Source of the DNA: Oceanispirochaeta sp.
Lineage (GTDB): Bacteria; Spirochaetota; Spirochaetia; DSM-2461
DNA: 64,000 nt
Direction of reading: 5' to 3'
Assembly: GCA_963663385.2 (NCBI GenBank)
Contig: CAXXXD010000003.1
Span: 1,585,649 to 1,649,648, forward strand
The position numbers and the translations under genes are program-made. The stretch's first letter is position 1; every line of letters begins with the position of its first letter. A model generated the notes under the pieces. That model was not told the DNA's origin and did no database searches. It saw nothing but the letters and a program-made list of their open reading frames with translations. Below are positions 47,783 to 64,000 of the stretch, in pieces.

Positions 47783-47799
47783 GGTCTCTTTTCAGAGAT

Positions 47800-47850
47800 A
47801 AAAACGCCCCCCTCTCGGCAGCGCTCGAGGATCCTGGGGGCGTTTTTTTT
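47800..47850 (+). terminator. Intrinsic terminator ending the ABC operon; marks the left edge of the accessory region
   Basis: AAAAACGCCCCC...GGGGGCGTTTTTTTT. Confidence 0.85.
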
Positions 47851-47877
47851 GTTGGTAGTCTTACGGAAAAATGATCT

Positions 47878-48780
47878 TTGTCTTATTATAGCAGTATGTC
47901 TTTCAACTATGATTCATGTTTATCCCTTTCCGGGGAAATCGATGCTGCTACTGGATTATACTACTACAATGCACGGTGGTATGATGCGGGGACCGGAAGG
48001 TTTATATCGGAAGACCCGGCTAGAGACGGCCAAAACTGGTTCAATTATGTATCAAACAACCCTCTAAAATTTGTCGATCCTACAGGAATGCGCCGTGTTG
48101 ATGGCGATAGTGCTGATGATGAAAGAGATCGAGAGCAGAGAAATACGGAATATGAAAAAAAGAAAAGCGATAGAAAAGATAGAAGAGATGCACAAGGCAG
48201 AGAAGATCGAAGAAATGATCTTAAAGATAAAAAAGATGATCTGATTAATTCCGGTATGGATAATGACCGAAATATAGATCGGCTTAATGAACAGATTCAA
48301 GCAGTTGAAGATGAGATAATGGATAATATAACTGAAGCTGCATATGATGAAATATCTGAAACGGTTGATGAAATCCTTAACAATGGTTTGGCCGAAACAG
48401 CGAAATCGTTTGTAGGTGGTAATTATCATTCTGGTGGAGAAACTCCATCACCTGAAGGACAAGGATTAGACTGTTCTTCGACATCTATGATTTCAGCTGA
48501 AACAGTAAGTGGTGTTGGTATTGGTGATCGAACTGCTGATGAAATGGCCAATGATCCTAACCTACTGAAACCGGGAAATGGTGGAGTGGGTTCTCAAAAC
48601 TTTTATGATTGGGATGGTGATGGTGTTTACGATCATGTTACGACAGTTACAGAAGCAGGAGAAGTTCATCCATCATCAAATGCTGGTAAAATTAATATGG
48701 TTGAAAATGGCTTCTTAGATCAATATGCAAAGAAAAAGATAAATAAAAACTACAATTGGGGTTATATTTTATGGGATTGA
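47878..48780 (+). CDS. Orphan Rhs core plus C-terminal toxin 1 (NlpC/P60-like peptidoglycan hydrolase); 5'-truncated, start uncertain
   Basis: EIDAATGLYYYNARWYD...GRFISEDP...YVSNNPLKFVDPTG Rhs core. C-terminus AKSFVGGNYHSGG...GLDCSS...YDHV...EVHPSS follows the NlpC/P60 Cys-His-His order. Confidence 0.8.
   Translation: MSYYSSMSFNYDSCLSLSGEIDAATGLYYYNARWYDAGTGRFISEDPARDGQNWFNYVSNNPLKFVDPTGMRRVDGDSADDERDREQRNTEYEKKKSDRKDRRDAQGREDRRNDLKDKKDDLINSGMDNDRNIDRLNEQIQAVEDEIMDNITEAAYDEISETVDEILNNGLAETAKSFVGGNYHSGGETPSPEGQGLDCSSTSMISAETVSGVGIGDRTADEMANDPNLLKPGNGGVGSQNFYDWDGDGVYDHVTTVTEAGEVHPSSNAGKINMVENGFLDQYAKKKINKNYNWGYILWD
47959..48130 (+). repeat. Rhs-core direct repeat, copy 1 (pairs with 57116-57293)
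   Basis: 40 bp exact match, 48001-48040 = 57158-57197; similarity runs from the YYYN codons through DPTGMRRVDG...DDERD. Confidence 0.9.
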
Positions 48781-49232
48781 GGAATATTTTTCTAATAACA
48801 GTACAAATCCTTTTATTTTCATCAGTAATATTTTCTGATGATATAATATTATTAAATAAAAAGTCTGCTGACTTCGAATTAATAATAGATGATGACATTG
48901 TTCAGATTTACACTGATTATTATTCTGATTCAGACATATGTGAAAGCTTCATAGGTGTTCTGAAGTCTGATATTAATCGGGATCATGTAATTTATTTTCA
49001 TGATGATATACTTGAAGATGCAACAGGGAAAATCTTGATATCATTTAAGAATCATGAGTTAATCTTTTATGGATTTAAGATGAAATTGTCTTACCCAAAT
49101 AATAAAGAATATTCTCCGGGTATAGTTTTAACTCCTTATTTTGCCTCTGGAAATTCTGTAGGAGATACTAAGACATTTAATTGGGATTATAAGAATAAAA
49201 CCTTTAAAGATGCTTTTTCTCACATTCCGTAA
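48771..49232 (+). CDS. Putative immunity protein 1 (exported)
   Basis: Overlaps the toxin stop codon; AT-rich; N-terminus MGLRNIFLITVQILLFSSVIFS is signal-like. Confidence 0.75.
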   Translation: MGLRNIFLITVQILLFSSVIFSDDIILLNKKSADFELIIDDDIVQIYTDYYSDSDICESFIGVLKSDINRDHVIYFHDDILEDATGKILISFKNHELIFYGFKMKLSYPNNKEYSPGIVLTPYFASGNSVGDTKTFNWDYKNKTFKDAFSHIP

Positions 49233-49234
49233 AT

Positions 49235-49292
49235 TCATAACGTCCATGCTCACCTGCAGGCTTGCCTGTCTGGTGCAGCACTGTTGTTATGA
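49235..49292. repeat. attC-like imperfect palindrome, copy 1 (58 bp)
   Basis: TCATAAC-gtccat-GCTCACC...GGTGCAGC-actgtt-GTTATGA: complementary outer boxes and one unpaired base in the inner arm. Confidence 0.7.
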
Positions 49293-49580
49293 CCCCTAAT
49301 TTTATTTTTCGCCGGAATGACATTTCACGTTGAAAAAGCTTTTCCGGCAGTAACCGCAGGCCGAACCTCCGCCGTCGTGGCTCCGGTTCTGATCAGAAAA
49401 TCCGTTATCTGCAGCTGCCGTCCCTGGCAGCTGTCCGCTTCGCCATATAACGAATTCTCTGTTCACCTGCTTTTAGTGGTAAGTTTATAGATTCCAGAAT
49501 AATTTTATACAGGAGCTGGCGGAGTGTTTTCTCTTTTTATCATAATTGCAAAAATGTAGTTACAATAGTATAATTATATT

Positions 49581-49868
49581 ATGACCTTTGAATGGGATAA
49601 AGAAAAAGACATAATCAACCAGAAGAAACACGGATTGTCATTCAAAGACGCCAAGTATGTTTTTGCCGACCCGTTTGCCCTGGTTCGTGAGGATTACACG
49701 GATTCAGAGCCCCGTCAGCAAATTATGGGGCATATCGGCGGCATTCTGCTGGTGCTTGTGGTTTACACCATGAGAGATCAGCAGGATGAAGACGTTTTCA
49801 GAATAATATCTGCCCGAAAAGCAACAACGGCAGAGAGGAGGAAGTATGAAGCAGGAAAATGGTTTTAG
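49581..49868 (+). CDS. BrnT-family toxin
   Basis: FEWDKEK...NQKKHGLSF...RIISARKAT..ERRKY. Confidence 0.92.
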   Translation: MTFEWDKEKDIINQKKHGLSFKDAKYVFADPFALVREDYTDSEPRQQIMGHIGGILLVLVVYTMRDQQDEDVFRIISARKATTAERRKYEAGKWF

Positions 49869-50139
49869 TCCTATGGATGAAGACACAAAGGCAAGACTCG
49901 CCAAGCTTGCCGAATTACCCGACTCCGAAATAGATACCAGTGACATAAAAGAGTGGTCTGATGAGGATTTTTCCAGGGCCGTCCCTTTTCACGATATTTA
50001 CAAGCCCAGGAAAGAGCAGATAACCACCCGAATCGATGCGGACATTCTTCTTTGGCTAAAAAGTCATGGTAAAGGGTATCAGACTTTGCTGAATGATTTA
50101 CTTCGAAAAGAGATGAATATGGAATGCAGTAAGCAGTAA
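49846..50139 (+). CDS. BrnA-family antitoxin
   Basis: IDTSDI...KEQITTRIDADILLWLKSHGKGYQT; overlaps brnT. Confidence 0.9.
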   Translation: MKQENGFSPMDEDTKARLAKLAELPDSEIDTSDIKEWSDEDFSRAVPFHDIYKPRKEQITTRIDADILLWLKSHGKGYQTLLNDLLRKEMNMECSKQ

Positions 50140-50191
50140 GCAGGGTTAGGTTTCTCATTCTCTTTGTAATAGCCGGATATCGAAAGAATAT

Positions 50192-50587
50192 CTATTTGGA
50201 TTGATTTTCCTTTAATTCATTCATGGCTCTCAAATCCTTGATATGCTCAAGGATTTTTTTTTGGTCTGCCGGTGGGAGTTCTTCCAGTTCTTTCAGGCGT
50301 TTTGTAAGTTTCAGATTTGTATCCTGTGCAAGAATATTTTCATCCTTCAGCCCGAAAAGAGTGTCAGTCGAGACATTCAGAGCAATGGCGAATCTTGCTA
50401 TCATTTCATCATAAAGTCGGACTCTTCCGCTTTCATAGGCAGATAATGCGGTTCTTGTAATGCCAATTGTTTCAGCCAATTCAAGCTGTGTAAGTCCTCT
50501 CTGTTTTCTTATTTTGGCAATGATTTCACCAATGCTTTTGTCACTGATTTTTAAAGGGGGTAATTCTTTCTTCGGTACTTGAGGCAT
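50192..50587 (-). CDS. XRE-family HTH transcriptional regulator
   Basis: IRKQRGLTQLELAETIGITRTALSAYESG; divergent from the replication operon. Confidence 0.92.
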   Translation of the reverse strand: MPQVPKKELPPLKISDKSIGEIIAKIRKQRGLTQLELAETIGITRTALSAYESGRVRLYDEMIARFAIALNVSTDTLFGLKDENILAQDTNLKLTKRLKELEELPPADQKKILEHIKDLRAMNELKENQSK

Positions 50588-50830
50588 GATTTATCTTATC
50601 ATATAACTTGACGAGTGATACATGATGTGTCATTATTAAACAGTCAAATGCTACTTGACACACTTTTGAAATATTGCCGTTGGCAATAAAAAAGCCCGTT
50701 TCCGAGTGTTTGGCGACCTTCGGGAAACAGGCTTAAAAACAACATAGGAGTAGAACTCCATGCACTTACAATTCTACCATAAATTCTTATCCCCGCAAAT
50801 GCCGTTCTGCTCCTTCCGATGGAGTAAAGA

Positions 50831-51115
50831 ATGGAAATCCGCACCAGCGACCTGTACGAGGCCGCCTACTACCTGACTAAAGGGGTAACGCCCCACCTGG
50901 TTACCTGCCGCCTTCTGGCCGGGAACGTCACCAAAGATATCATCTGCGACTTCTACTTCGAAGGAGAAGTCATTCCTCATCTTCAAAGCGACTTTTTGAG
51001 AAGTGAAGCGGTTGTCAATCTGGTTCTCTTCCGCCGTTGTTACGGAGAGATCAACAACTACGCCAACAATGCCAAGCGGGACTACCGGAAAAGCATGAAA
51101 GGGGGCCACCAGTGA
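50831..51115 (+). CDS. Small hypothetical protein (DUF5659-like)
   Basis: GGAG RBS; TSDLYEAAYYLTKG motif; first gene of the coupled operon. Confidence 0.65.
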   Translation: MEIRTSDLYEAAYYLTKGVTPHLVTCRLLAGNVTKDIICDFYFEGEVIPHLQSDFLRSEAVVNLVLFRRCYGEINNYANNAKRDYRKSMKGGHQ

Positions 51116-51378
51116 AAGACAGCCTCATAACAGCCAACCTGGCCGAAGTCGCCTACCTTTTGGATCAGCACCACCGGCTGGTCGATGTTTACCTGAGCAT
51201 GGGAACCCTGGGAGCCCAGGAGATGGTTTTCACTCTGGAAGGAGAGAACATTACCGGAGACCGTAAACTTTTTCTGGGTACCTGCCGGACTCCTTTGAAG
51301 AAGATCCCCGAGACTCTGGAAGTGATCCGGAACCTCCTCTGGAAGAAGGAAGAGGAGGCCCAGTGTGAATCTAGATAA
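51112..51378 (+). CDS. Small hypothetical protein, probable paralogue of the upstream ORF
   Basis: GTGA start/stop overlap; TANLAEVAYLL...FTLEGE aligns with TSDLYEAAYYL...FYFEGE. Confidence 0.65.
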   Translation: MKDSLITANLAEVAYLLDQHHRLVDVYLSMGTLGAQEMVFTLEGENITGDRKLFLGTCRTPLKKIPETLEVIRNLLWKKEEEAQCESR

Positions 51379-52171
51379 AATGGGTGATGCAAAGCATCAG
51401 GGCCCCATTCTTAGTCGCCAAAAGATCGTATTTACCAACCAGAAAGGCGGGGTCGGCAAGACCACCATGACAAGAGAACTGGGCTGTTACCTGGCCCATG
51501 ATAAAGGGCTGAAAACCCTTCTGGTAGACTGTGACAGCCAAGGCAACCTTTCCAGAAGTTTCTTCGACCAGCCGGGAAAAGGACTGTACGAGGCCATTAC
51601 AGAAGATGAAATTCACGTTCAAAGTGTCAGTGAGAATCTTGAGATCCTTTCCGGATCGATCTATCTCAGCCTGCTGGAAAAACAGCTTGTGGGAGAGTTC
51701 GACGGCTATGTACGGTTTAAGGAGCTTTTCGAACGGGAGGAGTTCGAATCCTACGATTTTATCCTGATGGATACTCCCCCTTCCCTGGGAATCCTCACGG
51801 GCAATGCCCTTGTAGCCGCCGATCACCTTGTGATGCCCATTACAGCCAGTCAGTACGCCCTGCAGGGAGCTTCGGACCTTCTGGAAACCATGGAGAAGAT
51901 CAGGCGGAGCCTGAACCCGACTCTTTACGCCCTGGGAGTCGTCCTTAACAGCTACAACCCGGTTACCCTGATCGGCCGGGAGCTGAAAGCCGAACTGACC
52001 GGGTTCTTCGGAGAAACCTGTTTTGAGACCGTGATCAGCCGGTCGATCCGGATCGAGGAAGCCATTGCCGAGAGGAAGGGCCTGGTCCAGCTGTCCGGTA
52101 ACCAATGGAAAAGGCCCGCGGAGGAAGTAAGGGCTCTGGGGAATGAACTTTTATCCCGGTGCGGTCTATGA
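51365..52171 (+). CDS. ParA/Soj-family ATPase
   Basis: NQKGGVGKTT, VDCDSQGN, DFILMDTPPSLG. Confidence 0.93.
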   Translation: MNLDKMGDAKHQGPILSRQKIVFTNQKGGVGKTTMTRELGCYLAHDKGLKTLLVDCDSQGNLSRSFFDQPGKGLYEAITEDEIHVQSVSENLEILSGSIYLSLLEKQLVGEFDGYVRFKELFEREEFESYDFILMDTPPSLGILTGNALVAADHLVMPITASQYALQGASDLLETMEKIRRSLNPTLYALGVVLNSYNPVTLIGRELKAELTGFFGETCFETVISRSIRIEEAIAERKGLVQLSGNQWKRPAEEVRALGNELLSRCGL

Positions 52172-54828
52172 CTTCTTCAAAGCTGAAAGGCAGGAGCCCT
52201 TTGAAGGGGGCTTCCCTGCTGGACGAGTTTGAAAAAGACCGGATCAAGGCACAAACCGATATAGTCAGTGTGATTACCTCCTATGGTATCTCTCTCGAGA
52301 AGAAAGGCTCTTCTTTCATGGGGCTGTGCCCCTTCCATGAGGACAAGAATCCTTCTCTTTCGGTGGACCAGTCCAAGGGACTGTTTCACTGTTTCGGCTG
52401 CGGGGCCGGCGGGGATGTGTTTGACTTTGTGATGAGGCACCAGGGCGTGGAGTTTAAAGAGGCTCTGGCTATCTTGAAAGGAGATGAGGGAAAGGCATTC
52501 AGGCCGAAGGAGGTACCGGCTCCGCCGGTGCCACTGGAGGGCGAACCTCTGCTTAAAACAACCTCATTGGAAGATGTAACGGATTACTATCACCGTCAGC
52601 TCTCCCATCCGGAAGCAGTTTCCTACCTGAAAAAACGGGGGATCTATGCTCCGGAGCTTCTGGGACGGCTGAAAGTCGGCTACTGCCCCGGAGACTTGAA
52701 AGACAAACTGTCCGAAGTCCAGTTTCAGGAGCTGAAAGAGGCGGGCCTCTTTACGGAAAAGAACCTTGAAACCTTCCGGGACTGCATTGTTTTCCCACTC
52801 TATTCTTCCGATGGGAAAGTCCGGAGATTTTACGGCAGGAAGATAAATGAAAGGTCCAGGGTGAAACACCTTTATTTGAAAGGGCCCCACCGGGGCCTGT
52901 TTAACCACCAGGCATTCAAGGTTTACCCGGACCGGATGATCCTGACAGAATCGGTGATTGATGCCTTTTCGCTGATGGTTTTGGGATGCGAAAATGTTTC
53001 CTGCTCTTACGGCGCCAACGGGGTGACCAGTCACCTTGTAGAAGCTTTGAAAGAAAACCGTACAAAGGAAGTTGTCCTTGCTTTCGACGGTGATGAAGCG
53101 GGCCGGGAGGCTGCAGAAAAGGTCGGAAAAACTCTTTTCGAAAAGGGTATTGCCGTCAGAACCATCTTCCCGCCTTCCAAGGACTGGAATGAGTCATTAC
53201 CAAAAATCACAAAGGAACAAGTTCTATCCCTGATCGAGAGCAGCATTCTGAAACCGCCGGAGGGTGATAAAAGGCCACTGGTGGCCGATGGTAAGTACCT
53301 GTTTCATTGTTCTTCTCTGGATTACCGGATCATCGGAGTTAAAGAAGGATTTGTCAGTTCCCTGAAGGTGAATGTCCGCTGTCAGAGGCCGGCGGATGAT
53401 ACTGTCAAGTTCATCGACAATGTAGACCTCTTCTCCGCCCGGAGCCGGACCCTTTTCTCTGTCGCGGTCGCTCGCCGGTTCGGCGAGGAATCCGCCAGGA
53501 TTGAAAAGGATTTACTGGATATCCTGGACTATTTGGAAGAAGAGTCTGAACGGGCCCTTTCGGATACCGGTTTAAAGAAGGGGTCTTTGACCCCTGAGGA
53601 AGAGGCAGCTGGCCTCTCCCTTTTACAGGATCCCAATCTTTTCGACAGGATTGTCAGGGATACGGAAGCTCTGGGCTACGTGGGAGAGGAGGAAAACAAG
53701 ATCCTTATGTACCTGGCCGCCTCCTCCCGTCTGATGGCCGATCCGGTAAGCGTAATCGTCATCTCCCAGTCCGCCGCTGGTAAAAGCTTTCTGATCGATA
53801 CGGTAAAAAAGCTGATGCCCGAAGAGGATGTGATTTCCATGACCAGCCTTTCCGACCAGGCCTTGAACTACCTTCCCGATGAAGCTCTGCTGCACAAGTT
53901 TCTGGTCATGGGAGAGGCGGTCCACTCGGAGAGCGTAGATCATCAGATGCGGGAGATGTTATCCGGAAAAGAGCTGTCCCGATTGGTGACCACCAAGGAT
54001 GAGAAGACCGGAAGAATGACCAGCAAGCTGGTACGGAAAAAAGTCATTGTTTCCGCCGTGATGTCCTCCACTTCGACGGAGATCAACCCGGAGAACGCCT
54101 CCCGCTGCTTTGTGGTAAACACAGACGAGAGCCGGGAGCAGACCAGGGAGATCCACCGGAGGCAGAGGGAGAAGTACACCCTGGAAGCCTACCGGAAGAA
54201 GGAAGAAGATCTCCCGGAAATCATTAAGACCCACCAGGCCGCCCAAAGGCTCCTGAAAAACCGGGTAATTGTTAATCCTTTCGCCGGGGAGCTGGACTTT
54301 CCCTCTTCCATGATGCGGAGCCGGCGGGACCATGAACGGTTTGTAGACCTCATTGCCTGCGTGTGCTTCCTGAGGCAGTACCAGAAACAGGAGAAGAATG
54401 ATCAGGGGAAGCATTACATAGAGTGCGACCTGGAAGACTACAAGGTGGCTTACCGGATCATGAAGACCCTGCTTTCTTCCACCATGACCACTTTACCCCG
54501 TTCGGCTGTCATTTTGTATGAGGAGCTCCGGGATCTTCTTAAAAGCAAAGCGGAGAAGGACGGGCTATTCCTGACCGATATCTGGGTGACCCAGCGGGAG
54601 ATCCGGGAGGTCTCCGGATTCTCCCATGAGCTGATCAAGAAGAATATGAGGCTTTTGACAGAGTATGAATACATCCGGAGCAAAGGATCGGGCCGGGGTA
54701 TGACCAGGCGTTACGGACTGGCGGCTGATTCTGACCTAGTTCTTTTCGATGACTCGGTGATTCCTTCACCTGACCATTTAACCAGGGAACCGGGTACAAA
54801 GCGGGTACGGAATGATGAAAAACAATAA
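52168..54828 (+). CDS. DnaG-type primase (CHC2 zinc finger + Toprim) fused to a C-terminal P-loop ATPase/helicase-like domain
   Basis: CPFHEDKNPS...FHCFGC; ILTESVIDA and AFDGDEAG (Toprim); SQSAAGKS Walker A; ATGA overlap with parA. Confidence 0.9.
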   Translation: MTSSKLKGRSPLKGASLLDEFEKDRIKAQTDIVSVITSYGISLEKKGSSFMGLCPFHEDKNPSLSVDQSKGLFHCFGCGAGGDVFDFVMRHQGVEFKEALAILKGDEGKAFRPKEVPAPPVPLEGEPLLKTTSLEDVTDYYHRQLSHPEAVSYLKKRGIYAPELLGRLKVGYCPGDLKDKLSEVQFQELKEAGLFTEKNLETFRDCIVFPLYSSDGKVRRFYGRKINERSRVKHLYLKGPHRGLFNHQAFKVYPDRMILTESVIDAFSLMVLGCENVSCSYGANGVTSHLVEALKENRTKEVVLAFDGDEAGREAAEKVGKTLFEKGIAVRTIFPPSKDWNESLPKITKEQVLSLIESSILKPPEGDKRPLVADGKYLFHCSSLDYRIIGVKEGFVSSLKVNVRCQRPADDTVKFIDNVDLFSARSRTLFSVAVARRFGEESARIEKDLLDILDYLEEESERALSDTGLKKGSLTPEEEAAGLSLLQDPNLFDRIVRDTEALGYVGEEENKILMYLAASSRLMADPVSVIVISQSAAGKSFLIDTVKKLMPEEDVISMTSLSDQALNYLPDEALLHKFLVMGEAVHSESVDHQMREMLSGKELSRLVTTKDEKTGRMTSKLVRKKVIVSAVMSSTSTEINPENASRCFVVNTDESREQTREIHRRQREKYTLEAYRKKEEDLPEIIKTHQAAQRLLKNRVIVNPFAGELDFPSSMMRSRRDHERFVDLIACVCFLRQYQKQEKNDQGKHYIECDLEDYKVAYRIMKTLLSSTMTTLPRSAVILYEELRDLLKSKAEKDGLFLTDIWVTQREIREVSGFSHELIKKNMRLLTEYEYIRSKGSGRGMTRRYGLAADSDLVLFDDSVIPSPDHLTREPGTKRVRNDEKQ

Positions 54829-54954
54829 TTGTTGTTCTGGTAAGGGATTAGCCGAAAGTGGGAAAACCGGGTACAGGCCGACTATTCGGCTTAAAGTTAA
54901 ATCCGGTAAAGGTTTAGGAGAAAGTGGGTACAAAATCCCGGAGAGAGACAGAGC

Positions 54955-56001
54955 ATGAATAATGATAAAAGGCTGACGCGAGAGCGTCAGGGTTCCTTTT
55001 CTCATAAAGCGGCAGGAACTTCCCGAAGGGAAGTGTCCGGAAGCGCAGGAAACATACATAAAGCCCATCAAACCCTGCTAGACAGCTATCTGGAAGAGAA
55101 AAAAGCCCTGGGAGCTTCTTCCCAGGCTCTCCGGAACGCCCACAGCCGGATTCCCCATTTTCTGGCCTATCTGGAAGAAGAAGGACTGACGGCGGATCAG
55201 ACGGACATCCGGGCGGCCAGAGGCTTCATGGCACACCTTACAGAACGGGGAACCGGAAGCGGAGAAGACTACAGGGTAAACACCCTGGCTTCCTACCGTC
55301 AGGCCGCTTCCTCCTTCAGCCGGTGGATGAGGGATTCGGGAAAGCTTGTTTCCGATCCCTTTACCGCCGTCAAAGCTCCCCGGGGTGAAAGGATCATTCC
55401 CAGGGATTTACCCATGGAGAAAGAACTGGCCCGGCTTCTCTCCCGTCTGGCGGACTTCTCTGCCGTGAAGGGACTGAAAGCCCGGAAAAGGCGGTATTTG
55501 ACCCATGTGCTGGCCGAGCTGCTTTACGCCTCGGGCCTCCGAATCAGCGAAGCGGCTGACCTTCAGGAAGAGAACCTGAATCTTGAAAGGAAAGAGATCA
55601 CCGTTATCTCCGGCAAGGGAGGATTCGACCGGAAGGTCTACCTGAACGACTACGCCGCCAGTGTATTAAGGCGGTTTCTAACCGTTCGGGATGAGATCCT
55701 GACCGGCAAGAGCAACAGGGAAAGGCTTTTCGGCTCTTCCTCGGATGAACTGGGAAAGGCTTTCAACAGGGATCTGAAAGAGGCTTGCGAAGAAGTCGGA
55801 ATTCCTTTTATGACAGCCCACAGCCTCCGGCACTGTCTGGGCTACCATCTTCTGAAACAAGGCTGCCCCTTGAGGCAGATTCAGCAGATCCTGGGGCACC
55901 GGGCCATCGGGAACACCGAGATTTACACCAAAGTGGATGTGAAAGAGGTAAAGGAGCAGCTGGACCGCCACCATCCCAGACAGCTGGGAAAAAGGAGATG
56001 A
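54955..56001 (+). CDS. Tyrosine recombinase 1 (XerC/D-like)
   Basis: YASGLRISE, GKGG, HSLRH, LGH, TEIY; start could lie further downstream. Confidence 0.92.
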   Translation: MNNDKRLTRERQGSFSHKAAGTSRREVSGSAGNIHKAHQTLLDSYLEEKKALGASSQALRNAHSRIPHFLAYLEEEGLTADQTDIRAARGFMAHLTERGTGSGEDYRVNTLASYRQAASSFSRWMRDSGKLVSDPFTAVKAPRGERIIPRDLPMEKELARLLSRLADFSAVKGLKARKRRYLTHVLAELLYASGLRISEAADLQEENLNLERKEITVISGKGGFDRKVYLNDYAASVLRRFLTVRDEILTGKSNRERLFGSSSDELGKAFNRDLKEACEEVGIPFMTAHSLRHCLGYHLLKQGCPLRQIQQILGHRAIGNTEIYTKVDVKEVKEQLDRHHPRQLGKRR

Positions 56002-57017
56002 AAAGACTCTCAAGGCAGAAAGCCCTTTCCCTTTTCGCCGGATACCTGAAGGCCCAGGGATTTAAAGAGGGAACTATTCGGACAAAGAAAGCTCAGCTTA
56101 CCCCCTTCTTTACCTTTTTGGATGAAACTGGCACGAAAGACATCCGGGATGTGAAAAGGAGTGATATTGTCTCCTTCCTTTCCTGGCTGCAGGAGCATCC
56201 CGGAGAGAGAGGACGGGGCTACAAGGACTCAACGAGGATGAGTATTTTCACCTCCGTGAAAAAGTTCTATCTCTGTTTGTATGAAAACAACCTGGTTTTG
56301 TCCTCACCGGTGGAGACAGTCCGCTTCGGGAAACGGCAGGAGCGGATCAAAGAAGTTTTGAGTGAGGACGAGACCGCACTCTTTCTGGATTCCATCGATA
56401 TTCACCAGCCCCTGGGGCTCCGGGACAGGGCCCTGTTTGAACTGATTTACTCTTCCGGTCTCCGGTCTTCCGAAGCGGCCCATCTGGATGTGAAAGATTA
56501 CGATCCGGCCAGCCGGTTATTGTGGATCCACCAGAGCAAGTTTTCCAAGGACCGCCGGGTCCCAGTGACCAAGGCGGCCGCCTGGTTTCTGGATAAGTAT
56601 CTGGAAGGCGTGAAAGCACACCACAGGCCTCTGATCCTTTCCGGGGGCTACCGGTTTACTCACGGAGGGATCAACAAACGGTTTAAACTGCTGAGTGAAA
56701 AGTGCGGACTCTACCGGAAAGGGCTGACCGTCCACTCCCTCCGGCACGGCTGTGCTTCCCATCTTCTGGCCCACGGGGCGGAGATCCGCTATGTTCAGGA
56801 GCTTTTGGGGCATGAATCGGTGGAAACCACGGTGGTTTACTCCCGGCAAAGCGAAGAGAACATCAAGGCTTCCTACAGGCAGTACCATCCCAGGGAGAAT
56901 TTCCATTTCGCCGAGGTGACCGACTCCTATCTTGATTCACTGGAAACTCTGGTTCGGGACAGTCTGAAGCAAAGAGAGAAGAATAGAAAAGCGCTTGCCC
57001 GTAAGATAGGTAAATGA
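55998..57017 (+). CDS. Tyrosine recombinase 2 (XerC/D-like)
   Basis: ATGA overlap and AGGAG RBS; LRDRALFELIYSSGLRSSE, SKFSKDR, HSLRH, LGH, TVVY. Confidence 0.93.
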   Translation: MKRLSRQKALSLFAGYLKAQGFKEGTIRTKKAQLTPFFTFLDETGTKDIRDVKRSDIVSFLSWLQEHPGERGRGYKDSTRMSIFTSVKKFYLCLYENNLVLSSPVETVRFGKRQERIKEVLSEDETALFLDSIDIHQPLGLRDRALFELIYSSGLRSSEAAHLDVKDYDPASRLLWIHQSKFSKDRRVPVTKAAAWFLDKYLEGVKAHHRPLILSGGYRFTHGGINKRFKLLSEKCGLYRKGLTVHSLRHGCASHLLAHGAEIRYVQELLGHESVETTVVYSRQSEENIKASYRQYHPRENFHFAEVTDSYLDSLETLVRDSLKQREKNRKALARKIGK

Positions 57018-57034
57018 TAGTTTATTAACGTACC

Positions 57035-57994
57035 ATGACAGCTACTAGAGAAATTCCAGTTTCAACGCCTCCTTGCAGGTCTCCTTTTTGCAACGATTTA
57101 GGGGGAGAGGGTGATTATTACTACAATGCAAGGTGGTATGATGCGCAGACGGGGAGATTTATATCGGAAGACCCGGCTAGAGACGGCCAAAACTGGTATT
57201 CATATGTAACAAATAATCCGCTGAAATACATAGATCCTACCGGAATGCGCCGTGTTGATGGTGATGGTGATGGTGCAGATGATGAGAGAGATCAGAAAGA
57301 TCGTCAACGAGAACAGCGAGAAAGAAATCGAGAAGCAAAGAAGAAAACAAAAATAAGAGATACTACTGATAGGATTAAAGACCTTCAGGAAAATGGAACT
57401 GGTGGATTATGGGATCGGTTTAGAATTTCCAATAATAAAGCGAGATTGAAAAATCAATTGAAATCTCTTGCATCAACTGGCTCTGATAATGCCAGAGACT
57501 GGATTAAAGCAAATACTGAAATCAATATTACCCGTGGTGTATATGAAACACCTGGTAGCGATGATTGGGATGGCCAAATGAATCTAGATTTTCAAGGTGT
57601 TACTTTGGAATCAATAAGAGTTCAAACTTGGGCTGATGATGAAAATCAAGAATTTGGAATCGATGGTACTATAGCTACAGGTATAAGTATTCAAGGTGAA
57701 TTACTTGATTGGGGAAATAATCCTGATAGAATTTATCTTTTTGATCCTGGATTTAATATTCATGGACTACCTGAGGGTGTGACAAATCCAGGAAGTTTAG
57801 GATGTATAATTGGCCAAAATGGAGATTATACTAACTTCACTTCAACAATGAAGGATATTGGTTTCAGATTTGGAACAAGTGCAAAGAGTCTTAATGATCC
57901 ATCAGATCTGATAAATGTTAATATAAAAACAGTTAATCCATATGATCGAGGTCTTCATAATCTAGGATATATGCTACCGAGGGGAAATAGATGA
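57035..57994 (+). CDS. Orphan Rhs core plus C-terminal toxin 2 (L,D-transpeptidase-fold, Tlde1/DUF2778-like)
   Basis: YYYNARWYD...GRFISEDP...NNPLKYIDPTG core; C-terminal GFNIHG-x8-SLGCI motif; the first 27 aa are not Rhs-like. Confidence 0.78.
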   Translation: MTATREIPVSTPPCRSPFCNDLGGEGDYYYNARWYDAQTGRFISEDPARDGQNWYSYVTNNPLKYIDPTGMRRVDGDGDGADDERDQKDRQREQRERNREAKKKTKIRDTTDRIKDLQENGTGGLWDRFRISNNKARLKNQLKSLASTGSDNARDWIKANTEINITRGVYETPGSDDWDGQMNLDFQGVTLESIRVQTWADDENQEFGIDGTIATGISIQGELLDWGNNPDRIYLFDPGFNIHGLPEGVTNPGSLGCIIGQNGDYTNFTSTMKDIGFRFGTSAKSLNDPSDLINVNIKTVNPYDRGLHNLGYMLPRGNR

Positions 57995-58833
57995 AGAAAA
58001 GAGTATTATATCTGTTCTTTTGTTTTGTCTGTTATCCTTTATTTTCAAATAATATTTTAGAGGGTAAAACATATAGTTCTGATGTGAATGGATTAAGGCA
58101 GATAATTGAATTTAGTGACGGTACATTGAAATATACCGCGTATTATGACGGAGATAAGGATGAAGAATATTCCACTACTTATCGAGTTGAAGAAAATGAG
58201 GGTATTTCATATTTAGTATTAGGTAAAGAATCAGAAAAATGGCTTGCTATGTTATCTGAAGATTATATCTTTCTGTATAAGGAAGATGGCGAGCCTTTTT
58301 TTGATGGATGGTGGACTGGATCAAAATTTGACCCGACATTATTCAATTACTATAGTAAAGACCTTTTTGAGACTGACAGTTTTCTTATTGAAGAAATAGA
58401 CAATAAGAAAATATCATACCCTTCAGCAAATCTAGGAACAATTGCAATACCATATCCATGGGTAGAAGGTGATGAGAATGATGGTGTCGGGGTACACATT
58501 ACAGGACTCTTTAATTCAGGAGAAAGATTCCAGCATTACTTAGTGTTTTCAAATGGTTATGTCTCATATAAAAGGCCTGACTTATACAGAAAGAATGGTA
58601 GAATTAAAAAAATTCGTATAACAGATATTGAATTGGGTAAATCAAAAGATGTTGATATTAAAGATACTCCAAATCTACAGTATATTTATGTTTCTGATAT
58701 TATAACAGGTAATAAAGGTTTTACGATTGAGATCTTAGAAACATATAGTGGAAGTAAATACAATGATACTTGTATCAATTTCCTGGGAGTCTATTATGTT
58801 CATAATACAAGCCCCTTATTTGATTATAAATAA
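57991..58833 (+). CDS. Putative immunity protein 2 (exported; C-terminal discoidin/NADase-type glycan-binding-like domain)
   Basis: ATGA overlap with the toxin; signal peptide MKKRVLYLFFCFVCYPLFS; PWVEG...NGY...LYRKNGRIKKI...IEILETYSGSKYNDTCI. Confidence 0.72.
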   Translation: MKKRVLYLFFCFVCYPLFSNNILEGKTYSSDVNGLRQIIEFSDGTLKYTAYYDGDKDEEYSTTYRVEENEGISYLVLGKESEKWLAMLSEDYIFLYKEDGEPFFDGWWTGSKFDPTLFNYYSKDLFETDSFLIEEIDNKKISYPSANLGTIAIPYPWVEGDENDGVGVHITGLFNSGERFQHYLVFSNGYVSYKRPDLYRKNGRIKKIRITDIELGKSKDVDIKDTPNLQYIYVSDIITGNKGFTIEILETYSGSKYNDTCINFLGVYYVHNTSPLFDYK

Positions 58834-58912
58834 CCATGAGCTCACCTGCCCAACTGCTGAACAATCCGTTCCGGAACCAGTAAAACGGACAGGTGCAGCG
58901 CTCTTGTTATGA
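58828..58912. repeat. attC-like imperfect palindrome, copy 2 (85 bp)
   Basis: AAATAAC-catga-GCTCACCTG...CAGGTGCAGC-gctctt-GTTATGA; the immunity stop codon TAA lies inside the left box. Confidence 0.7.
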
Positions 58913-59201
58913 TTCCCAATTTAATTCTTTCGCCGGAATAACATTTCACGTTGAAGAAGTCTTACCGGCAGTAATCGCAGGCCGAACCTCCGCCGTCGTG
59001 GCTCCGGTTCTAAACAGAAAATGCGTTATCTGCAGCTGCCGTCCCTGGCAGCTGTCCGCTTCGCCATATAACGAATTCTCTGTTCACCTGCTTTTAGTGG
59101 TAAGTTTATAGATTCCAGAATAATTTTATACAGGAGCTGGCGGAGTGTTTTCTCTTTTTATCATAATTGCAAAAATGTAGTTACAATAGTATAATTATAT
59201 T

Positions 59202-59489
59202 ATGACCTTTGAATGGGATAAAGAAAAAGACATAATCAACCAGAAGAAACACGGATTGTCATTCAAAGACGCCAAGTATGTTTTTGCCGACCCGTTTGCC
59301 CTGGTTCGTGAGGATTACACGGATTCAGAGCCCCGTCAGCAAATTATGGGGCATATCGGCGGCATTCTGCTGGTGCTTGTGGTTTACACCATGAGAGATC
59401 AGCAGGATGAAGACGTTTTCAGAATAATATCTGCCCGAAAAGCAACAACGGCAGAGAGGAGGAAGTATGAAGCAGGAAAATGGTTTTAG
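59202..59489 (+). CDS. BrnT-family toxin (copy 2)
   Basis: Translation identical to 49581-49868. Confidence 0.92.
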   Translation: MTFEWDKEKDIINQKKHGLSFKDAKYVFADPFALVREDYTDSEPRQQIMGHIGGILLVLVVYTMRDQQDEDVFRIISARKATTAERRKYEAGKWF

Positions 59490-59760
59490 TCCTATGGATG
59501 AAGACACAAAGGCAAGACTCGCCAAGCTTGCCGAATTACCCGACTCCGAAATAGATACCAGTGACATAAAAGAGTGGTCTGATGAGGATTTTTCCAGGGC
59601 CGTCCCTTTTCACGATATTTACAAGCCCAGGAAAGAGCAGATAACCACCCGAATCGATGCGGACATTCTTCTTTGGCTAAAAAGTCATGGTAAAGGGTAT
59701 CAGACTTTGCTGAATGATTTACTTCGAAAAGAGATGAATATGGAATGCAGTAAGCAGTAA
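59467..59760 (+). CDS. BrnA-family antitoxin (copy 2)
   Basis: Translation identical to 49846-50139. Confidence 0.9.
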   Translation: MKQENGFSPMDEDTKARLAKLAELPDSEIDTSDIKEWSDEDFSRAVPFHDIYKPRKEQITTRIDADILLWLKSHGKGYQTLLNDLLRKEMNMECSKQ

Positions 59761-59812
59761 GCAGGGTTAGGTTTCTCATTCTCTTTGTAATAGCCGGATA
59801 TCGAAAGAATAT

Positions 59813-60208
59813 CTATTTGGATTGATTTTCCTTTAATTCATTCATGGCTCTCAAATCCTTGATATGCTCAAGGATTTTTTTTTGGTCTGCCGGTGGGAGT
59901 TCTTCCAGTTCTTTCAGGCGTTTTGTAAGTTTCAGATTTGTATCCTGTGCAAGAATATTTTCATCCTTCAGCCCGAAAAGAGTGTCAGTCGAGACATTCA
60001 GAGCAATGGCGAATCTTGCTATCATTTCATCATAAAGTCGGACTCTTCCGCTTTCATAGGCAGATAATGCGGTTCTTGTAATGCCAATTGTTTCAGCCAA
60101 TTCAAGCTGTGTAAGTCCTCTCTGTTTTCTTATTTTGGCAATGATTTCACCAATGCTTTTGTCACTGATTTTTAAAGGGGGTAATTCTTTCTTCGGTACT
60201 TGAGGCAT
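59813..60208 (-). CDS. XRE-family regulator (copy 2)
   Basis: Translation identical to 50192-50587. Confidence 0.92.
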   Translation of the reverse strand: MPQVPKKELPPLKISDKSIGEIIAKIRKQRGLTQLELAETIGITRTALSAYESGRVRLYDEMIARFAIALNVSTDTLFGLKDENILAQDTNLKLTKRLKELEELPPADQKKILEHIKDLRAMNELKENQSK

Positions 60209-60451
60209 GATTTATCTTATCATATAACTTGACGAGTGATACATGATGTGTCATTATTAAACAGTCAAATGCTACTTGACACACTTTTGAAATATTGCCG
60301 TTGGCAATAAAAAAGCCCGTTTCCGAGTGTTTGGCGACCTTCGGGAAACAGGCTTAAAAACAACATAGGAGTAGAACTCCATGCACTTACAATTCTACCA
60401 TAAATTCTTATCCCCGCAAATGCCGTTCTGCTCCTTCCGATGGAGTAAAGA

Positions 60452-60736
60452 ATGGAAATCCGCACCAGCGACCTGTACGAGGCCGCCTACTACCTGACTA
60501 AAGGGGTAACGCCCCACCTGGTTACCTGCCGCCTTCTGGCCGGGAACGTCACCAAAGATATCATCTGCGACTTCTACTTCGAAGGAGAAGTCATTCCTCA
60601 TCTTCAAAGCGACTTTTTGAGAAGTGAAGCGGTTGTCAATCTGGTTCTCTTCCGCCGTTGTTACGGAGAGATCAACAACTACGCCAACAATGCCAAGCGG
60701 GACTACCGGAAAAGCATGAAAGGGGGCCACCAGTGA
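60452..60736 (+). CDS. Small hypothetical protein (DUF5659-like, copy 2)
   Basis: Translation identical to 50831-51115. Confidence 0.65.
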   Translation: MEIRTSDLYEAAYYLTKGVTPHLVTCRLLAGNVTKDIICDFYFEGEVIPHLQSDFLRSEAVVNLVLFRRCYGEINNYANNAKRDYRKSMKGGHQ

Positions 60737-60999
60737 AAGACAGCCTCATAACAGCCAACCTGGCCGAAGTCGCCTACCTTTTGGATCAGCACCACCGGCT
60801 GGTCGATGTTTACCTGAGCATGGGAACCCTGGGAGCCCAGGAGATGGTTTTCACTCTGGAAGGAGAGAACATTACCGGAGACCGTAAACTTTTTCTGGGT
60901 ACCTGCCGGACTCCTTTGAAGAAGATCCCCGAGACTCTGGAAGTGATCCGGAACCTCCTCTGGAAGAAGGAAGAGGAGGCCCAGTGTGAATCTAGATAA
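60733..60999 (+). CDS. Small hypothetical paralogue (copy 2)
   Basis: Translation identical to 51112-51378. Confidence 0.65.
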   Translation: MKDSLITANLAEVAYLLDQHHRLVDVYLSMGTLGAQEMVFTLEGENITGDRKLFLGTCRTPLKKIPETLEVIRNLLWKKEEEAQCESR

Positions 61000-61792
61000 A
61001 ATGGGTGATGCAAAGCATCAGGGCCCCATTCTTAGTCGCCAAAAGATCGTATTTACCAACCAGAAAGGCGGGGTCGGCAAGACCACCATGACAAGAGAAC
61101 TGGGCTGTTACCTGGCCCATGATAAAGGGCTGAAAACCCTTCTGGTAGACTGTGACAGCCAAGGCAACCTTTCCAGAAGTTTCTTCGACCAGCCGGGAAA
61201 AGGACTGTACGAGGCCATTACAGAAGATGAAATTCACGTTCAAAGTGTCAGTGAGAATCTTGAGATCCTTTCCGGATCGATCTATCTCAGCCTGCTGGAA
61301 AAACAGCTTGTGGGAGAGTTCGACGGCTATGTACGGTTTAAGGAGCTTTTCGAACGGGAGGAGTTCGAATCCTACGATTTTATCCTGATGGATACTCCCC
61401 CTTCCCTGGGAATCCTCACGGGCAATGCCCTTGTAGCCGCCGATCACCTTGTGATGCCCATTACAGCCAGTCAGTACGCCCTGCAGGGAGCTTCGGACCT
61501 TCTGGAAACCATGGAGAAGATCAGGCGGAGCCTGAACCCGACTCTTTACGCCCTGGGAGTCGTCCTTAACAGCTACAACCCGGTTACCCTGATCGGCCGG
61601 GAGCTGAAAGCCGAACTGACCGGGTTCTTCGGAGAAACCTGTTTTGAGACCGTGATCAGCCGGTCGATCCGGATCGAGGAAGCCATTGCCGAGAGGAAGG
61701 GCCTGGTCCAGCTGTCCGGTAACCAATGGAAAAGGCCCGCGGAGGAAGTAAGGGCTCTGGGGAATGAACTTTTATCCCGGTGCGGTCTATGA
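60986..61792 (+). CDS. ParA-family ATPase (copy 2)
   Basis: Translation identical to 51365-52171. Confidence 0.93.
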   Translation: MNLDKMGDAKHQGPILSRQKIVFTNQKGGVGKTTMTRELGCYLAHDKGLKTLLVDCDSQGNLSRSFFDQPGKGLYEAITEDEIHVQSVSENLEILSGSIYLSLLEKQLVGEFDGYVRFKELFEREEFESYDFILMDTPPSLGILTGNALVAADHLVMPITASQYALQGASDLLETMEKIRRSLNPTLYALGVVLNSYNPVTLIGRELKAELTGFFGETCFETVISRSIRIEEAIAERKGLVQLSGNQWKRPAEEVRALGNELLSRCGL

Positions 61793-64000
61793 CTTCTTCA
61801 AAGCTGAAAGGCAGGAGCCCTTTGAAGGGGGCTTCCCTGCTGGACGAGTTTGAAAAAGACCGGATCAAGGCACAAACCGATATAGTCAGTGTGATTACCT
61901 CCTATGGTATCTCTCTCGAGAAGAAAGGCTCTTCTTTCATGGGGCTGTGCCCCTTCCATGAGGACAAGAATCCTTCTCTTTCGGTGGACCAGTCCAAGGG
62001 ACTGTTTCACTGTTTCGGCTGCGGGGCCGGCGGGGATGTGTTTGACTTTGTGATGAGGCACCAGGGCGTGGAGTTTAAAGAGGCTCTGGCTATCTTGAAA
62101 GGAGATGAGGGAAAGGCATTCAGGCCGAAGGAGGTACCGGCTCCGCCGGTGCCACTGGAGGGCGAACCTCTGCTTAAAACAACCTCATTGGAAGATGTAA
62201 CGGATTACTATCACCGTCAGCTCTCCCATCCGGAAGCAGTTTCCTACCTGAAAAAACGGGGGATCTATGCTCCGGAGCTTCTGGGACGGCTGAAAGTCGG
62301 CTACTGCCCCGGAGACTTGAAAGACAAACTGTCCGAAGTCCAGTTTCAGGAGCTGAAAGAGGCGGGCCTCTTTACGGAAAAGAACCTTGAAACCTTCCGG
62401 GACTGCATTGTTTTCCCACTCTATTCTTCCGATGGGAAAGTCCGGAGATTTTACGGCAGGAAGATAAATGAAAGGTCCAGGGTGAAACACCTTTATTTGA
62501 AAGGGCCCCACCGGGGCCTGTTTAACCACCAGGCATTCAAGGTTTACCCGGACCGGATGATCCTGACAGAATCGGTGATTGATGCCTTTTCGCTGATGGT
62601 TTTGGGATGCGAAAATGTTTCCTGCTCTTACGGCGCCAACGGGGTGACCAGTCACCTTGTAGAAGCTTTGAAAGAAAACCGTACAAAGGAAGTTGTCCTT
62701 GCTTTCGACGGTGATGAAGCGGGCCGGGAGGCTGCAGAAAAGGTCGGAAAAACTCTTTTCGAAAAGGGTATTGCCGTCAGAACCATCTTCCCGCCTTCCA
62801 AGGACTGGAATGAGTCATTACCAAAAATCACAAAGGAACAAGTTCTATCCCTGATCGAGAGCAGCATTCTGAAACCGCCGGAGGGTGATAAAAGGCCACT
62901 GGTGGCCGATGGTAAGTACCTGTTTCATTGTTCTTCTCTGGATTACCGGATCATCGGAGTTAAAGAAGGATTTGTCAGTTCCCTGAAGGTGAATGTCCGC
63001 TGTCAGAGGCCGGCGGATGATACTGTCAAGTTCATCGACAATGTAGACCTCTTCTCCGCCCGGAGCCGGACCCTTTTCTCTGTCGCGGTCGCTCGCCGGT
63101 TCGGCGAGGAATCCGCCAGGATTGAAAAGGATTTACTGGATATCCTGGACTATTTGGAAGAAGAGTCTGAACGGGCCCTTTCGGATACCGGTTTAAAGAA
63201 GGGGTCTTTGACCCCTGAGGAAGAGGCAGCTGGCCTCTCCCTTTTACAGGATCCCAATCTTTTCGACAGGATTGTCAGGGATACGGAAGCTCTGGGCTAC
63301 GTGGGAGAGGAGGAAAACAAGATCCTTATGTACCTGGCCGCCTCCTCCCGTCTGATGGCCGATCCGGTAAGCGTAATCGTCATCTCCCAGTCCGCCGCTG
63401 GTAAAAGCTTTCTGATCGATACGGTAAAAAAGCTGATGCCCGAAGAGGATGTGATTTCCATGACCAGCCTTTCCGACCAGGCCTTGAACTACCTTCCCGA
63501 TGAAGCTCTGCTGCACAAGTTTCTGGTCATGGGAGAGGCGGTCCACTCGGAGAGCGTAGATCATCAGATGCGGGAGATGTTATCCGGAAAAGAGCTGTCC
63601 CGATTGGTGACCACCAAGGATGAGAAGACCGGAAGAATGACCAGCAAGCTGGTACGGAAAAAAGTCATTGTTTCCGCCGTGATGTCCTCCACTTCGACGG
63701 AGATCAACCCGGAGAACGCCTCCCGCTGCTTTGTGGTAAACACAGACGAGAGCCGGGAGCAGACCAGGGAGATCCACCGGAGGCAGAGGGAGAAGTACAC
63801 CCTGGAAGCCTACCGGAAGAAGGAAGAAGATCTCCCGGAAATCATTAAGACCCACCAGGCCGCCCAAAGGCTCCTGAAAAACCGGGTAATTGTTAATCCT
63901 TTCGCCGGGGAGCTGGACTTTCCCTCTTCCATGATGCGGAGCCGGCGGGACCATGAACGGTTTGTAGACCTCATTGCCTGCGTGTGCTTCCTGAGGCAGT
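61789..64000 (+). CDS. CHC2-Toprim primase/ATPase (copy 2, partial)
   Basis: Sequence matches 52168-54379; cut by the window edge. Confidence 0.9.
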   Translation, partial: MTSSKLKGRSPLKGASLLDEFEKDRIKAQTDIVSVITSYGISLEKKGSSFMGLCPFHEDKNPSLSVDQSKGLFHCFGCGAGGDVFDFVMRHQGVEFKEALAILKGDEGKAFRPKEVPAPPVPLEGEPLLKTTSLEDVTDYYHRQLSHPEAVSYLKKRGIYAPELLGRLKVGYCPGDLKDKLSEVQFQELKEAGLFTEKNLETFRDCIVFPLYSSDGKVRRFYGRKINERSRVKHLYLKGPHRGLFNHQAFKVYPDRMILTESVIDAFSLMVLGCENVSCSYGANGVTSHLVEALKENRTKEVVLAFDGDEAGREAAEKVGKTLFEKGIAVRTIFPPSKDWNESLPKITKEQVLSLIESSILKPPEGDKRPLVADGKYLFHCSSLDYRIIGVKEGFVSSLKVNVRCQRPADDTVKFIDNVDLFSARSRTLFSVAVARRFGEESARIEKDLLDILDYLEEESERALSDTGLKKGSLTPEEEAAGLSLLQDPNLFDRIVRDTEALGYVGEEENKILMYLAASSRLMADPVSVIVISQSAAGKSFLIDTVKKLMPEEDVISMTSLSDQALNYLPDEALLHKFLVMGEAVHSESVDHQMREMLSGKELSRLVTTKDEKTGRMTSKLVRKKVIVSAVMSSTSTEINPENASRCFVVNTDESREQTREIHRRQREKYTLEAYRKKEEDLPEIIKTHQAAQRLLKNRVIVNPFAGELDFPSSMMRSRRDHERFVDLIACVCFLRQ

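Follow-up and report, generated by a model that had tools for sequence, protein, structure and literature searches.

A candidate integrative element carrying Rhs tips and immunity genes in Oceanispirochaeta sp.

The window analysed here is a stretch of 64,000 nucleotides from Oceanispirochaeta sp. that reaches to the last base of contig C3. It contains a tandem array in which Rhs toxin tips and putative immunity genes are joined to repeated copies of a backbone of replication and recombination genes. The unit of 9-10 kb, which runs from tip through immunity gene to backbone, is probably an integrative element that would use Xer-type recombinases of its own to insert a circular form at a fixed site in the Rhs core and displace the old tip. 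The genome of the window is designated G000 (assembly completeness 98%), and C2 and C4 are other contigs of it; other G-numbers denote genomes of relatives, and L-numbers denote loci.

Unit boundaries and the junction in the Rhs core

The array consists of Rhs-core tip 1, immunity gene 1, a BrnT/BrnA pair, an XRE-family repressor, two small open reading frames, ParA, a primase and two tyrosine recombinases; the recombinase pair is followed by Rhs-core tip 2, immunity gene 2 and the backbone again. Profile matches and open reading frames confirm this order, described in an earlier note on this DNA, in both copies as far as the window reaches. The note had listed the backbone twice. The first is complete, whereas the contig ends inside the second primase and leaves the second recombinase pair outside the window. 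The repeat at 9,621 bp is as had been claimed: copy 2 of the backbone is 99.7% identical to copy 1 over 5,109 bp, and the 15 mismatches and one gap are confined to 49280-49402, with identity from 49403. The cargo is indeed AT-richer (GC content 0.33 vs 0.53 in the backbone), and the two tips are unrelated outside the common core, save for a weak N-terminal similarity (27%, E 2e-4).

The limits of the unit are set by a third backbone on contig C4, which is 100% identical to 47962-57129, tip 1 and immunity gene 1 included, and has a left neighbour and a following tip that differ from those of the window. Because both C4 breakpoints fall at one 14-bp stretch within the Rhs core, unit 1 is tip-immunity-backbone and measures 9,157 bp; unit 2 measures 9,621 bp. 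The two genes that flank the C4 insertion are adjacent in 6 of the 9 relatives examined. With the start of the unit placed within the Rhs core, the backbone that travels with a given tip is the one after it, and a tip behind a backbone is a displaced resident. The earlier idea that every tip rides on its own element is supported in that every tip goes together with a primase/recombinase backbone of its own. The junctions and the parts next to them are as follows.

47959..47972, forward strand: left junction, attL-like, 14 bp, Rhs core codons YY[YF]NA; the identity with C4 starts here, the last mismatch being at 47961.
57018..57115, forward strand: right end of the element, a leader of 27 codons whose ATG (57035) shares its frame with the displaced tip; tips 2, 3 and 4 all have this same sequence ahead of them.
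57116..57129, forward strand: unit 1/unit 2 junction, attR-like, 9,157 bp from the left junction; the C4 copy diverges from 57130.
58913..64000, forward strand: backbone copy 2, from the spacer to the partial primase; the rest lies on C2 with both recombinases and tip 3.

The right end gives a 27-codon in-frame leader to any tip behind it, and such a leader is also present in G415 and G416. The 14-bp motif occurs eight times in G000 (0.5 expected), seven of these at the seven Rhs cores. The eighth match, at C3:37064, is unoccupied and has no upstream GG. A GG lies 6 and 5 bases ahead of the motif at 24 of the 26 sites, even in leaders that are not translated and beside flanks unrelated to Rhs, a pattern that was noticed post hoc in sites that are related to one another. 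The junction is constant within a family and varies among families (YY[YF]NA, FTGK, WY/EY, YGY/DD, /DPIG and /VENN, with the slash at the junction). On contig C3 of G409, a unit starts exactly at the motif, directly after ordinary terminator DNA, and the counterpart in G000 is empty. At a separate locus of G409 (L164, contig C1, about position 7296 of the locus), the left part of an Rhs gene with the motif is fused to non-Rhs DNA, possibly the reciprocal product of an off-target insertion.

Extension of the contig, proposed earlier as a means of counting units, adds the recombinases that were missing, as well as another tip. At its end, C2 shares 5,057 bp with the window at 99.96% identity and has the variants of copy 2; it continues with both recombinases, tip 3, its immunity gene and a PIN-type pair, so the array holds three tips in total. 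In 4 of the 8 genus relatives that have the left-flank permease, the gene on the right flank of the array is next to it or one small gene later; for this reason, the whole array is taken as an insertion and the join of C3 to C2 as supported. Contig depth in two runs was 102-108 and 169 for the backbone, 81 and 146 for tip 1, 42 and 49 for tip 2, and 44 and 65 for the left flank, values consistent with a backbone present about three times and tip 1 present twice; depths from four contig sets agree with the assembly. The overlap, the synteny in relatives and the depth rule out an assembly duplication as the source of the repeat. Additional collapsed copies may lie in the gap between C3 and C2. 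No tRNA target was found within the window, and no Rfam model matched it at gathering score. In one run (X1), the backbone contig passes 57130 into 57130-57144 without the branch that the C4 junction demands, which hints at another arrangement in that sample. Past the permease at L170 (G403), a RelE-like gene resembling that of the G416 element occupies the orthologous site, which may be a hot spot.

Related arrays in spirochaetes and other bacteria

Homologous backbones were sought with a primase profile, and the best 80 of 377 hits gave 75 loci, several of them from one genome. Rhs cores at these loci were detected with a home-made profile at a threshold of 18 bits (decoy maximum 8 bits), which misses late-core junctions. 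A recombinase follows the primase at all 35 loci with 3 kb of room, and two recombinases at 29 of these 35. A same-strand core lies within 8 kb upstream in 15 of 22 loci, and 10 of these 15 cores end frames with at least 450 residues before the core; a core lies within 4 kb downstream in 15 of 26. Among the 34 loci listed, no core was on the opposite strand. The primase-recombinase-recombinase-Rhs synteny that the earlier note suggested looking for in other genomes is thus present. The nearest named loci carry the label Oceanispirochaeta sp., with a primase identity of 86-87%; their order and tips equal those of two genus loci, and they are not counted separately. Of the 401 genomes that make up the phylum sample, 14 have the primase at E 1e-80.

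The layout left flank, tip A-backbone, tip A-backbone, tip B was found in four genomes (G416, G409, G438 and G439). In G416, a Rhs protein of 3,384 residues is followed by two copies of 9.9 kb (99.9% identical) that begin inside its core; the final 282 residues of the Rhs protein are those of the first orphan, and the second backbone is followed by a different tip. In G438, a complete Brucepastera genome, and in G439, the same layout stands behind a full-length Rhs that ends in tip A. In G409, it extends across two contigs behind non-Rhs DNA. The opposite unit, backbone then tip, was considered and is disfavoured by the C4 copy and by these four arrays. Tandem loci in G281, G289, G345, G411 and G415 have tips that differ or are related and are uninformative on unit order; at L203, the downstream tips are repeated, but the second and third backbones are alike. 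In G415, a full-length Rhs is followed by two different backbones.

The link between backbone and variable Rhs tips recurs across phyla, and the earlier expectation of primase and recombinase genes beside rhs in other bacteria is borne out in E. coli, Janthinobacterium, Ralstonia and the spirochaete loci. The window primase is 32% identical, across its length, to the primase of the rhs locus between ansP and yddH in E. coli. The genes there run from vgrG and dcrB through Rhs, immunity, SymE, XRE, primase and a single xerC to the leader and an orphan tip. The xerC of the E. coli element is present in 56 of 5,426 genomes, at a median of four places. On an Enterobacter plasmid, tandem copies of this backbone follow CdiA, and the VENN motif is where the orphans are attached; in Janthinobacterium and Ralstonia, the backbone stands behind long Rhs-type genes. 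Inverted arms flanking a 6-bp centre are the layout of an Xer site. In all nine E. coli and Lonsdalea leader junctions compared, the inverted arms on the two sides of a 6-bp centre match at 5-6 of 6 positions, whereas ten other sites have 0-3 of 6; the E. coli junction is symmetric and resembles dif. A dif sequence is quoted in PMC10210955, in the part of that source considered here.

Proposed mechanism and alternative explanations

The predicted circular form would integrate at the short site in the Rhs core through the Xer-type recombinases of the element. A full-length rhs gene would gain the tip of the element, and the old tip with its immunity gene would be shunted behind the backbone. 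Every insertion would recreate the core site, so that further units could stack; repeated insertion best explains the array, as the earlier note had proposed. One backbone would come to carry different tips probably via homologous exchange in the spacer or backbone. Excision, replication by the DnaG/MCM-like protein, dependence on the recombinases and control by the XRE repressor are presumed parts of this cycle. Replacement of tips on full-length genes, the change of warhead foreseen in the earlier note, is strongly implied by three independent genomes. In G000 there is no full-length Rhs to re-arm; the targets would be headless cores or look-alike sites, and the element would persist there as selfish DNA with orphan tips and immunity genes for cargo.

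In the model outlined in the part of Jackson et al. (2009, PMC2935791) considered here, an incoming circle puts a new tip on rhs by one crossover and the old tip is shunted downstream, which gives rise to orphan arrays. Tip replacement and displacement are the same here, and the unit adds recombinases, a primase-helicase and a fixed junction. It likely behaves like the displacement circle that those authors could just postulate. The wider reading is that a self-replicating element family extends across phyla, with evolved recombinases for which conserved pre-toxin motifs (Rhs core, CdiA VENN) serve as att sites, and that it is the episomal tip reservoir postulated in 2009, re-arming its hosts and leaving orphan arrays; in that reading, the old immunity stays, displaced tips are picked up, and loss of backbones yields the familiar orphan arrays. 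This combined claim is given slightly better than even chances.

Several observations weigh against the insertion of a circular element at the core. Joints of a circle or of an empty site between 47959 and 57116 were absent from four contig sets covering 47400-58890, and contigs lose rare variants. The window's own junction has neither clear arm symmetry nor a clear fold (z -0.4). To the left of the insertion, both here and on C4, 30-50 bases of Rhs-like DNA remain that are missing from the empty sites of relatives, presumably from an earlier step. Full-length Rhs and YD repeats are absent from the 98%-complete assembly of G000, whose tips are therefore orphans. No genome was found in which the displaced tip is still on a full-length Rhs: six genomes hold the tip, five of them in the xerC list, and the contexts were not inspected. 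No core was detected upstream in 7 of 22 loci and downstream in 11 of 26, the backbones at L038, L040 and L086 have other cargo, and no transfer genes were found in G000. In favour of a circular form, two small circular records, one of 11,289 bp from Lonsdalea and one of 8,758 bp from Shigella, hold the backbone, the leader junction and tips, but either could be a collapsed repeat; the Shigella record matches an E. coli chromosome in one piece between two primase copies and may be such a repeat or a homologous pop-out. A Leptospira circular record of 13 kb was rejected, its frames being fragmented and without a core match. The arrays of E. coli MP1 and R12 are unequal by a single unit, and the crossover lies in the leader (R12 16182-16248), about 700 bp before the core site, so that arrays also change by homologous recombination.

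This last comparison fits the strongest alternative, that a small integrative replicon happens to sit in rhs loci and that tips and arrays change by homologous recombination between cores and backbones, as in the models of Jackson and Koskiniemi. Tandem duplications form easily, and backbones in the genus are mosaic (in G409, ParA is 98% and XRE 65% identical). Homologous exchange of tips is known from Salmonella: in the part of Koskiniemi et al. (2014, PMC3967940) considered here, an orphan Rhs is activated by duplication and homologous exchange at the core, with the old immunity kept. That exchange involves 522 bp of near-identity in one locus and no mobile backbone, in contrast to the putatively mobile backbone here. 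The alternative is nevertheless unlikely. The end of the element upstream of the junction has no Rhs homology, which makes the shared sequence begin at a fixed point; there are insertions behind non-Rhs DNA (G409 C3), symmetric arms at 9/9 enterobacterial leader junctions, and fixed sites specific to each family.

It is much less probable that the unit is a giant integron cassette, in the order backbone-tip-immunity-attC, moved at attC-like hairpins by the host IntI or by the recombinases of the element. An attC-like hairpin and the same spacer close all seven tips of G000, mostly followed by a toxin-antitoxin pair; the hairpin comes in three interchangeable types and recurs in three other genus members (G409-G411). 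A true IntI is encoded in G000 at C2:1688005, and a tip in G410 adjoins intI. AT-rich cargo and stacking at one site are further likenesses to integron arrays. The terminal boxes and the fold would fit an attC site, and eight host attC-like sites, when aligned, were too variable for a model. However, the unit lacks IntI and has a backbone of 8 kb per cargo; the two recombinases score 90 and 102 bits against the IntI model TIGR02249 (cut-off 265), which sets them apart from integron integrases. In G415 and G416, no hairpin of this kind was found after the tips, and the tip duplicated in relatives is the upstream one. Copies 1 and 2 of the window still differ 110 bp beyond the hairpin, and identity starts within a stretch common to the backbone-less heads. 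In this one copy pair, the last swap was not at the hairpin crossover point, and the pattern fits homologous exchange in the spacer rather than an attC-crossover swap.

Least probable of all is that the unit is a phage satellite or a defence island. Such a replicon would depend on a helper, carry toxin-antitoxin and tip-immunity genes as cargo and use the Rhs core as a mere landing site. An integrase, primase-helicase and repressor without transfer genes are satellite-like and some homologous backbones lack Rhs, but the helicase half is unmatched in 50,697 phage records, the small open reading frames have no PHROG match, and an in-frame toxin end is always restored by the element. A satellite-type transfer route is compatible with an integrative element.

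The element fits none of the families compared. Satellites of the P4 type or of the phage-inducible chromosomal island (PICI) type, and integrative and mobilizable elements (IMEs), have a tyrosine recombinase, a primase-helicase, a repressor and a replacement end that restores the target gene. Integrase, repressor and primase-helicase are present here too, and the end supplied to the target gene brings another toxin domain. No Pfam, NCBIfam or PHROG match marks the small open reading frames as genes for exploiting a helper (terS, capsid-size, Psu), and no terminase or capsid-remodelling gene was recognised. A site-specific recombinase and defined att junctions, as in integrative and conjugative elements (ICEs) and IMEs, are present by sequence comparison; among the 13 proteins, no relaxase or conjugation gene was found (a TraI match is the zinc finger alone, 21 bits), and oriT was not searched. 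In the rAID arrays of Bacteroidales, one XerD-like recombinase gene is followed by immunity genes without toxins; an XerD-like recombinase beside polymorphic-toxin cassettes is common to both, whereas here tips are retained and every unit has a backbone. RIT elements have three tandem tyrosine recombinases, compared with two in the window and one in the enterobacterial form. Classical orphan rhs arrays share the truncated core, variable tip, immunity gene and low GC content. They lie downstream of an intact rhs, as in G415, G416, G438, G439 and E. coli and unlike in G000, and they are bare cassettes of variable core length without a recombinase, in contrast to the fixed junction and 8-kb backbone here.

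No description of the element was found in the literature, with subscription journals and supplements outside the coverage; its parts are annotated singly in RefSeq, and specialists may have noticed the neighbourhood. How Rhs and CdiA tips arrive and are displaced has been open since the 2009 model, which had no vehicle, and a candidate vehicle can now be named with its ends to the base. The presence of the element in E. coli makes excision and recombinase dependence testable. If the mechanism is true, it would be a natural recombinase system for in-frame domain swapping, together with a replicon based on a DnaG-MCM fusion.

Gene content of the units and further observations

The tips, immunity genes and hairpins of the window are listed first.

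47878..48780, forward strand: tip 1, truncated Rhs core (TIGR03696, E 8e-18) and C-terminal domain, possibly NlpC/P60-like (lead only).
48756..49232, forward strand: putative immunity gene 1, AT-rich, with a hydrophobic N-terminus; assigned by position and composition, no family match.
49235..49292, forward strand: attC-like hairpin behind immunity gene 1, its 7-bp terminal boxes perfect; folding gives z -3.5 and -2.8.
49293..49452, forward strand: conserved spacer after the hairpin, found behind all seven G000 tips.
57035..57994, forward strand: tip 2, leader, truncated core (TIGR03696, E 5e-15) and C-terminal domain; weak Tlde1-like lead (ESM Atlas 0.79 to DUF2778).
57991..58833, forward strand: putative immunity gene 2, NADase-type glycan-binding domain (NF047619, above cut-off).
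58828..58912, forward strand: attC-like hairpin behind immunity gene 2, 85-bp type, z -3.0 on the minus strand and -1.3 on the plus strand.

In the ESM Atlas, NlpC/P60 clusters share 138-144 features with tip 1, at a score of 0.90; for tips 1 and 2, a cell-wall-enzyme function is a weak lead. The tips have no match among solved structures, tips 3-6 have no Pfam family, and a search for longer homologues of the tips found none, a weak negative. The immunity genes of tips 1-3 begin with hydrophobic stretches. All seven Rhs cores of G000 are truncated, and the orphans are genuine Rhs tips: in G438, a Rhs frame of 3,580 residues ends in a sequence with 40% identity to tip 5. Since all seven tips end in hairpin and spacer, mostly with a toxin-antitoxin pair, the tips at the ends resemble the heads of older units from which the backbone has gone. 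Orphan tips with the element leader and without a backbone occur at L154 (G415 C1) and in G345 (C5, 30-35 kb), which suggests an origin for bare orphan arrays. Rhs tips expressed internally as toxin-antitoxin modules are described in the part of Starsta et al. (2020, PMC7043789) considered here, and, by analogy, such expression could apply to the leader-fused tips.

The genes of backbone copy 1 are as follows.

49581..50139, forward strand: BrnT/BrnA toxin-antitoxin pair (PF04365, PF14384); other pairs occupy the slot at other loci.
50192..50587, reverse strand: XRE-family repressor, divergent from the backbone operon (PF01381; RstR-like below cut-off).
50831..51378, forward strand: two small open reading frames of no known family, the first conserved (29-38% identity in distant loci).
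51365..52171, forward strand: ParA-type ATPase (PF13614, phrog_164).
52159..54828, forward strand: DnaG-type primase (CHC2 and Toprim) fused to a predicted MCM-like helicase, 889 residues.
54955..56001, forward strand: tyrosine recombinase 1, XerC/D-like (PF00589, catalytic motifs).
56001..57017, forward strand: tyrosine recombinase 2, XerC/D-like (PF00589), 28% identical to the xerC of the E. coli element.

Catalytic motifs are kept in both recombinases. The 889-residue protein is a predicted DnaG/MCM-like primase-helicase, on the basis of a structural model (pLDDT 75.5, pTM 0.45) whose matches are DnaG and MCM helicases. No ParB was recognised beside ParA, and the two small open reading frames have no Pfam, NCBIfam or PHROG match; partition and addiction, which the earlier note ascribed to the element, are putative.

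Further observations concern backbones elsewhere. Homologous backbones at L038, L040, L041 and L086 have non-Rhs cargo, and L038 and L040 share a small gene behind the recombinases. A treponeme-type variant (L048, L049, L053 and L065) encodes a protein of 565-650 residues that matches the helicase half alone (residues ~380-880) and has no primase domain. On contig C4 of G216 (L028-L029), two inverted backbones surround a RelE/HTH pair beside a long Rhs, possibly through an inversion or an assembly artefact. G436 has twenty Rhs cores, most within 65 kb (C2:137-201 kb), and no match to the window recombinase at E 1e-60.

Other observations concern integrons and repeats. In G000, C2:1670000-1688955 (L189) is a chromosomal integron with the IntI gene and AT-rich cassettes that three copies of a 426-residue, group II intron-like reverse transcriptase gene set apart from one another, and an attC cluster at C3:727-747 kb (L188) holds a further copy of this gene. 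In G410 (L167:7694-10853), a Rhs tip-immunity pair lies between intI and its cassette array. The starts of G000 contigs C1 and C2 overlap in a long, internally repeated stretch with units of ~370 bp and 2 kb, probably the gene of a giant repeat protein.

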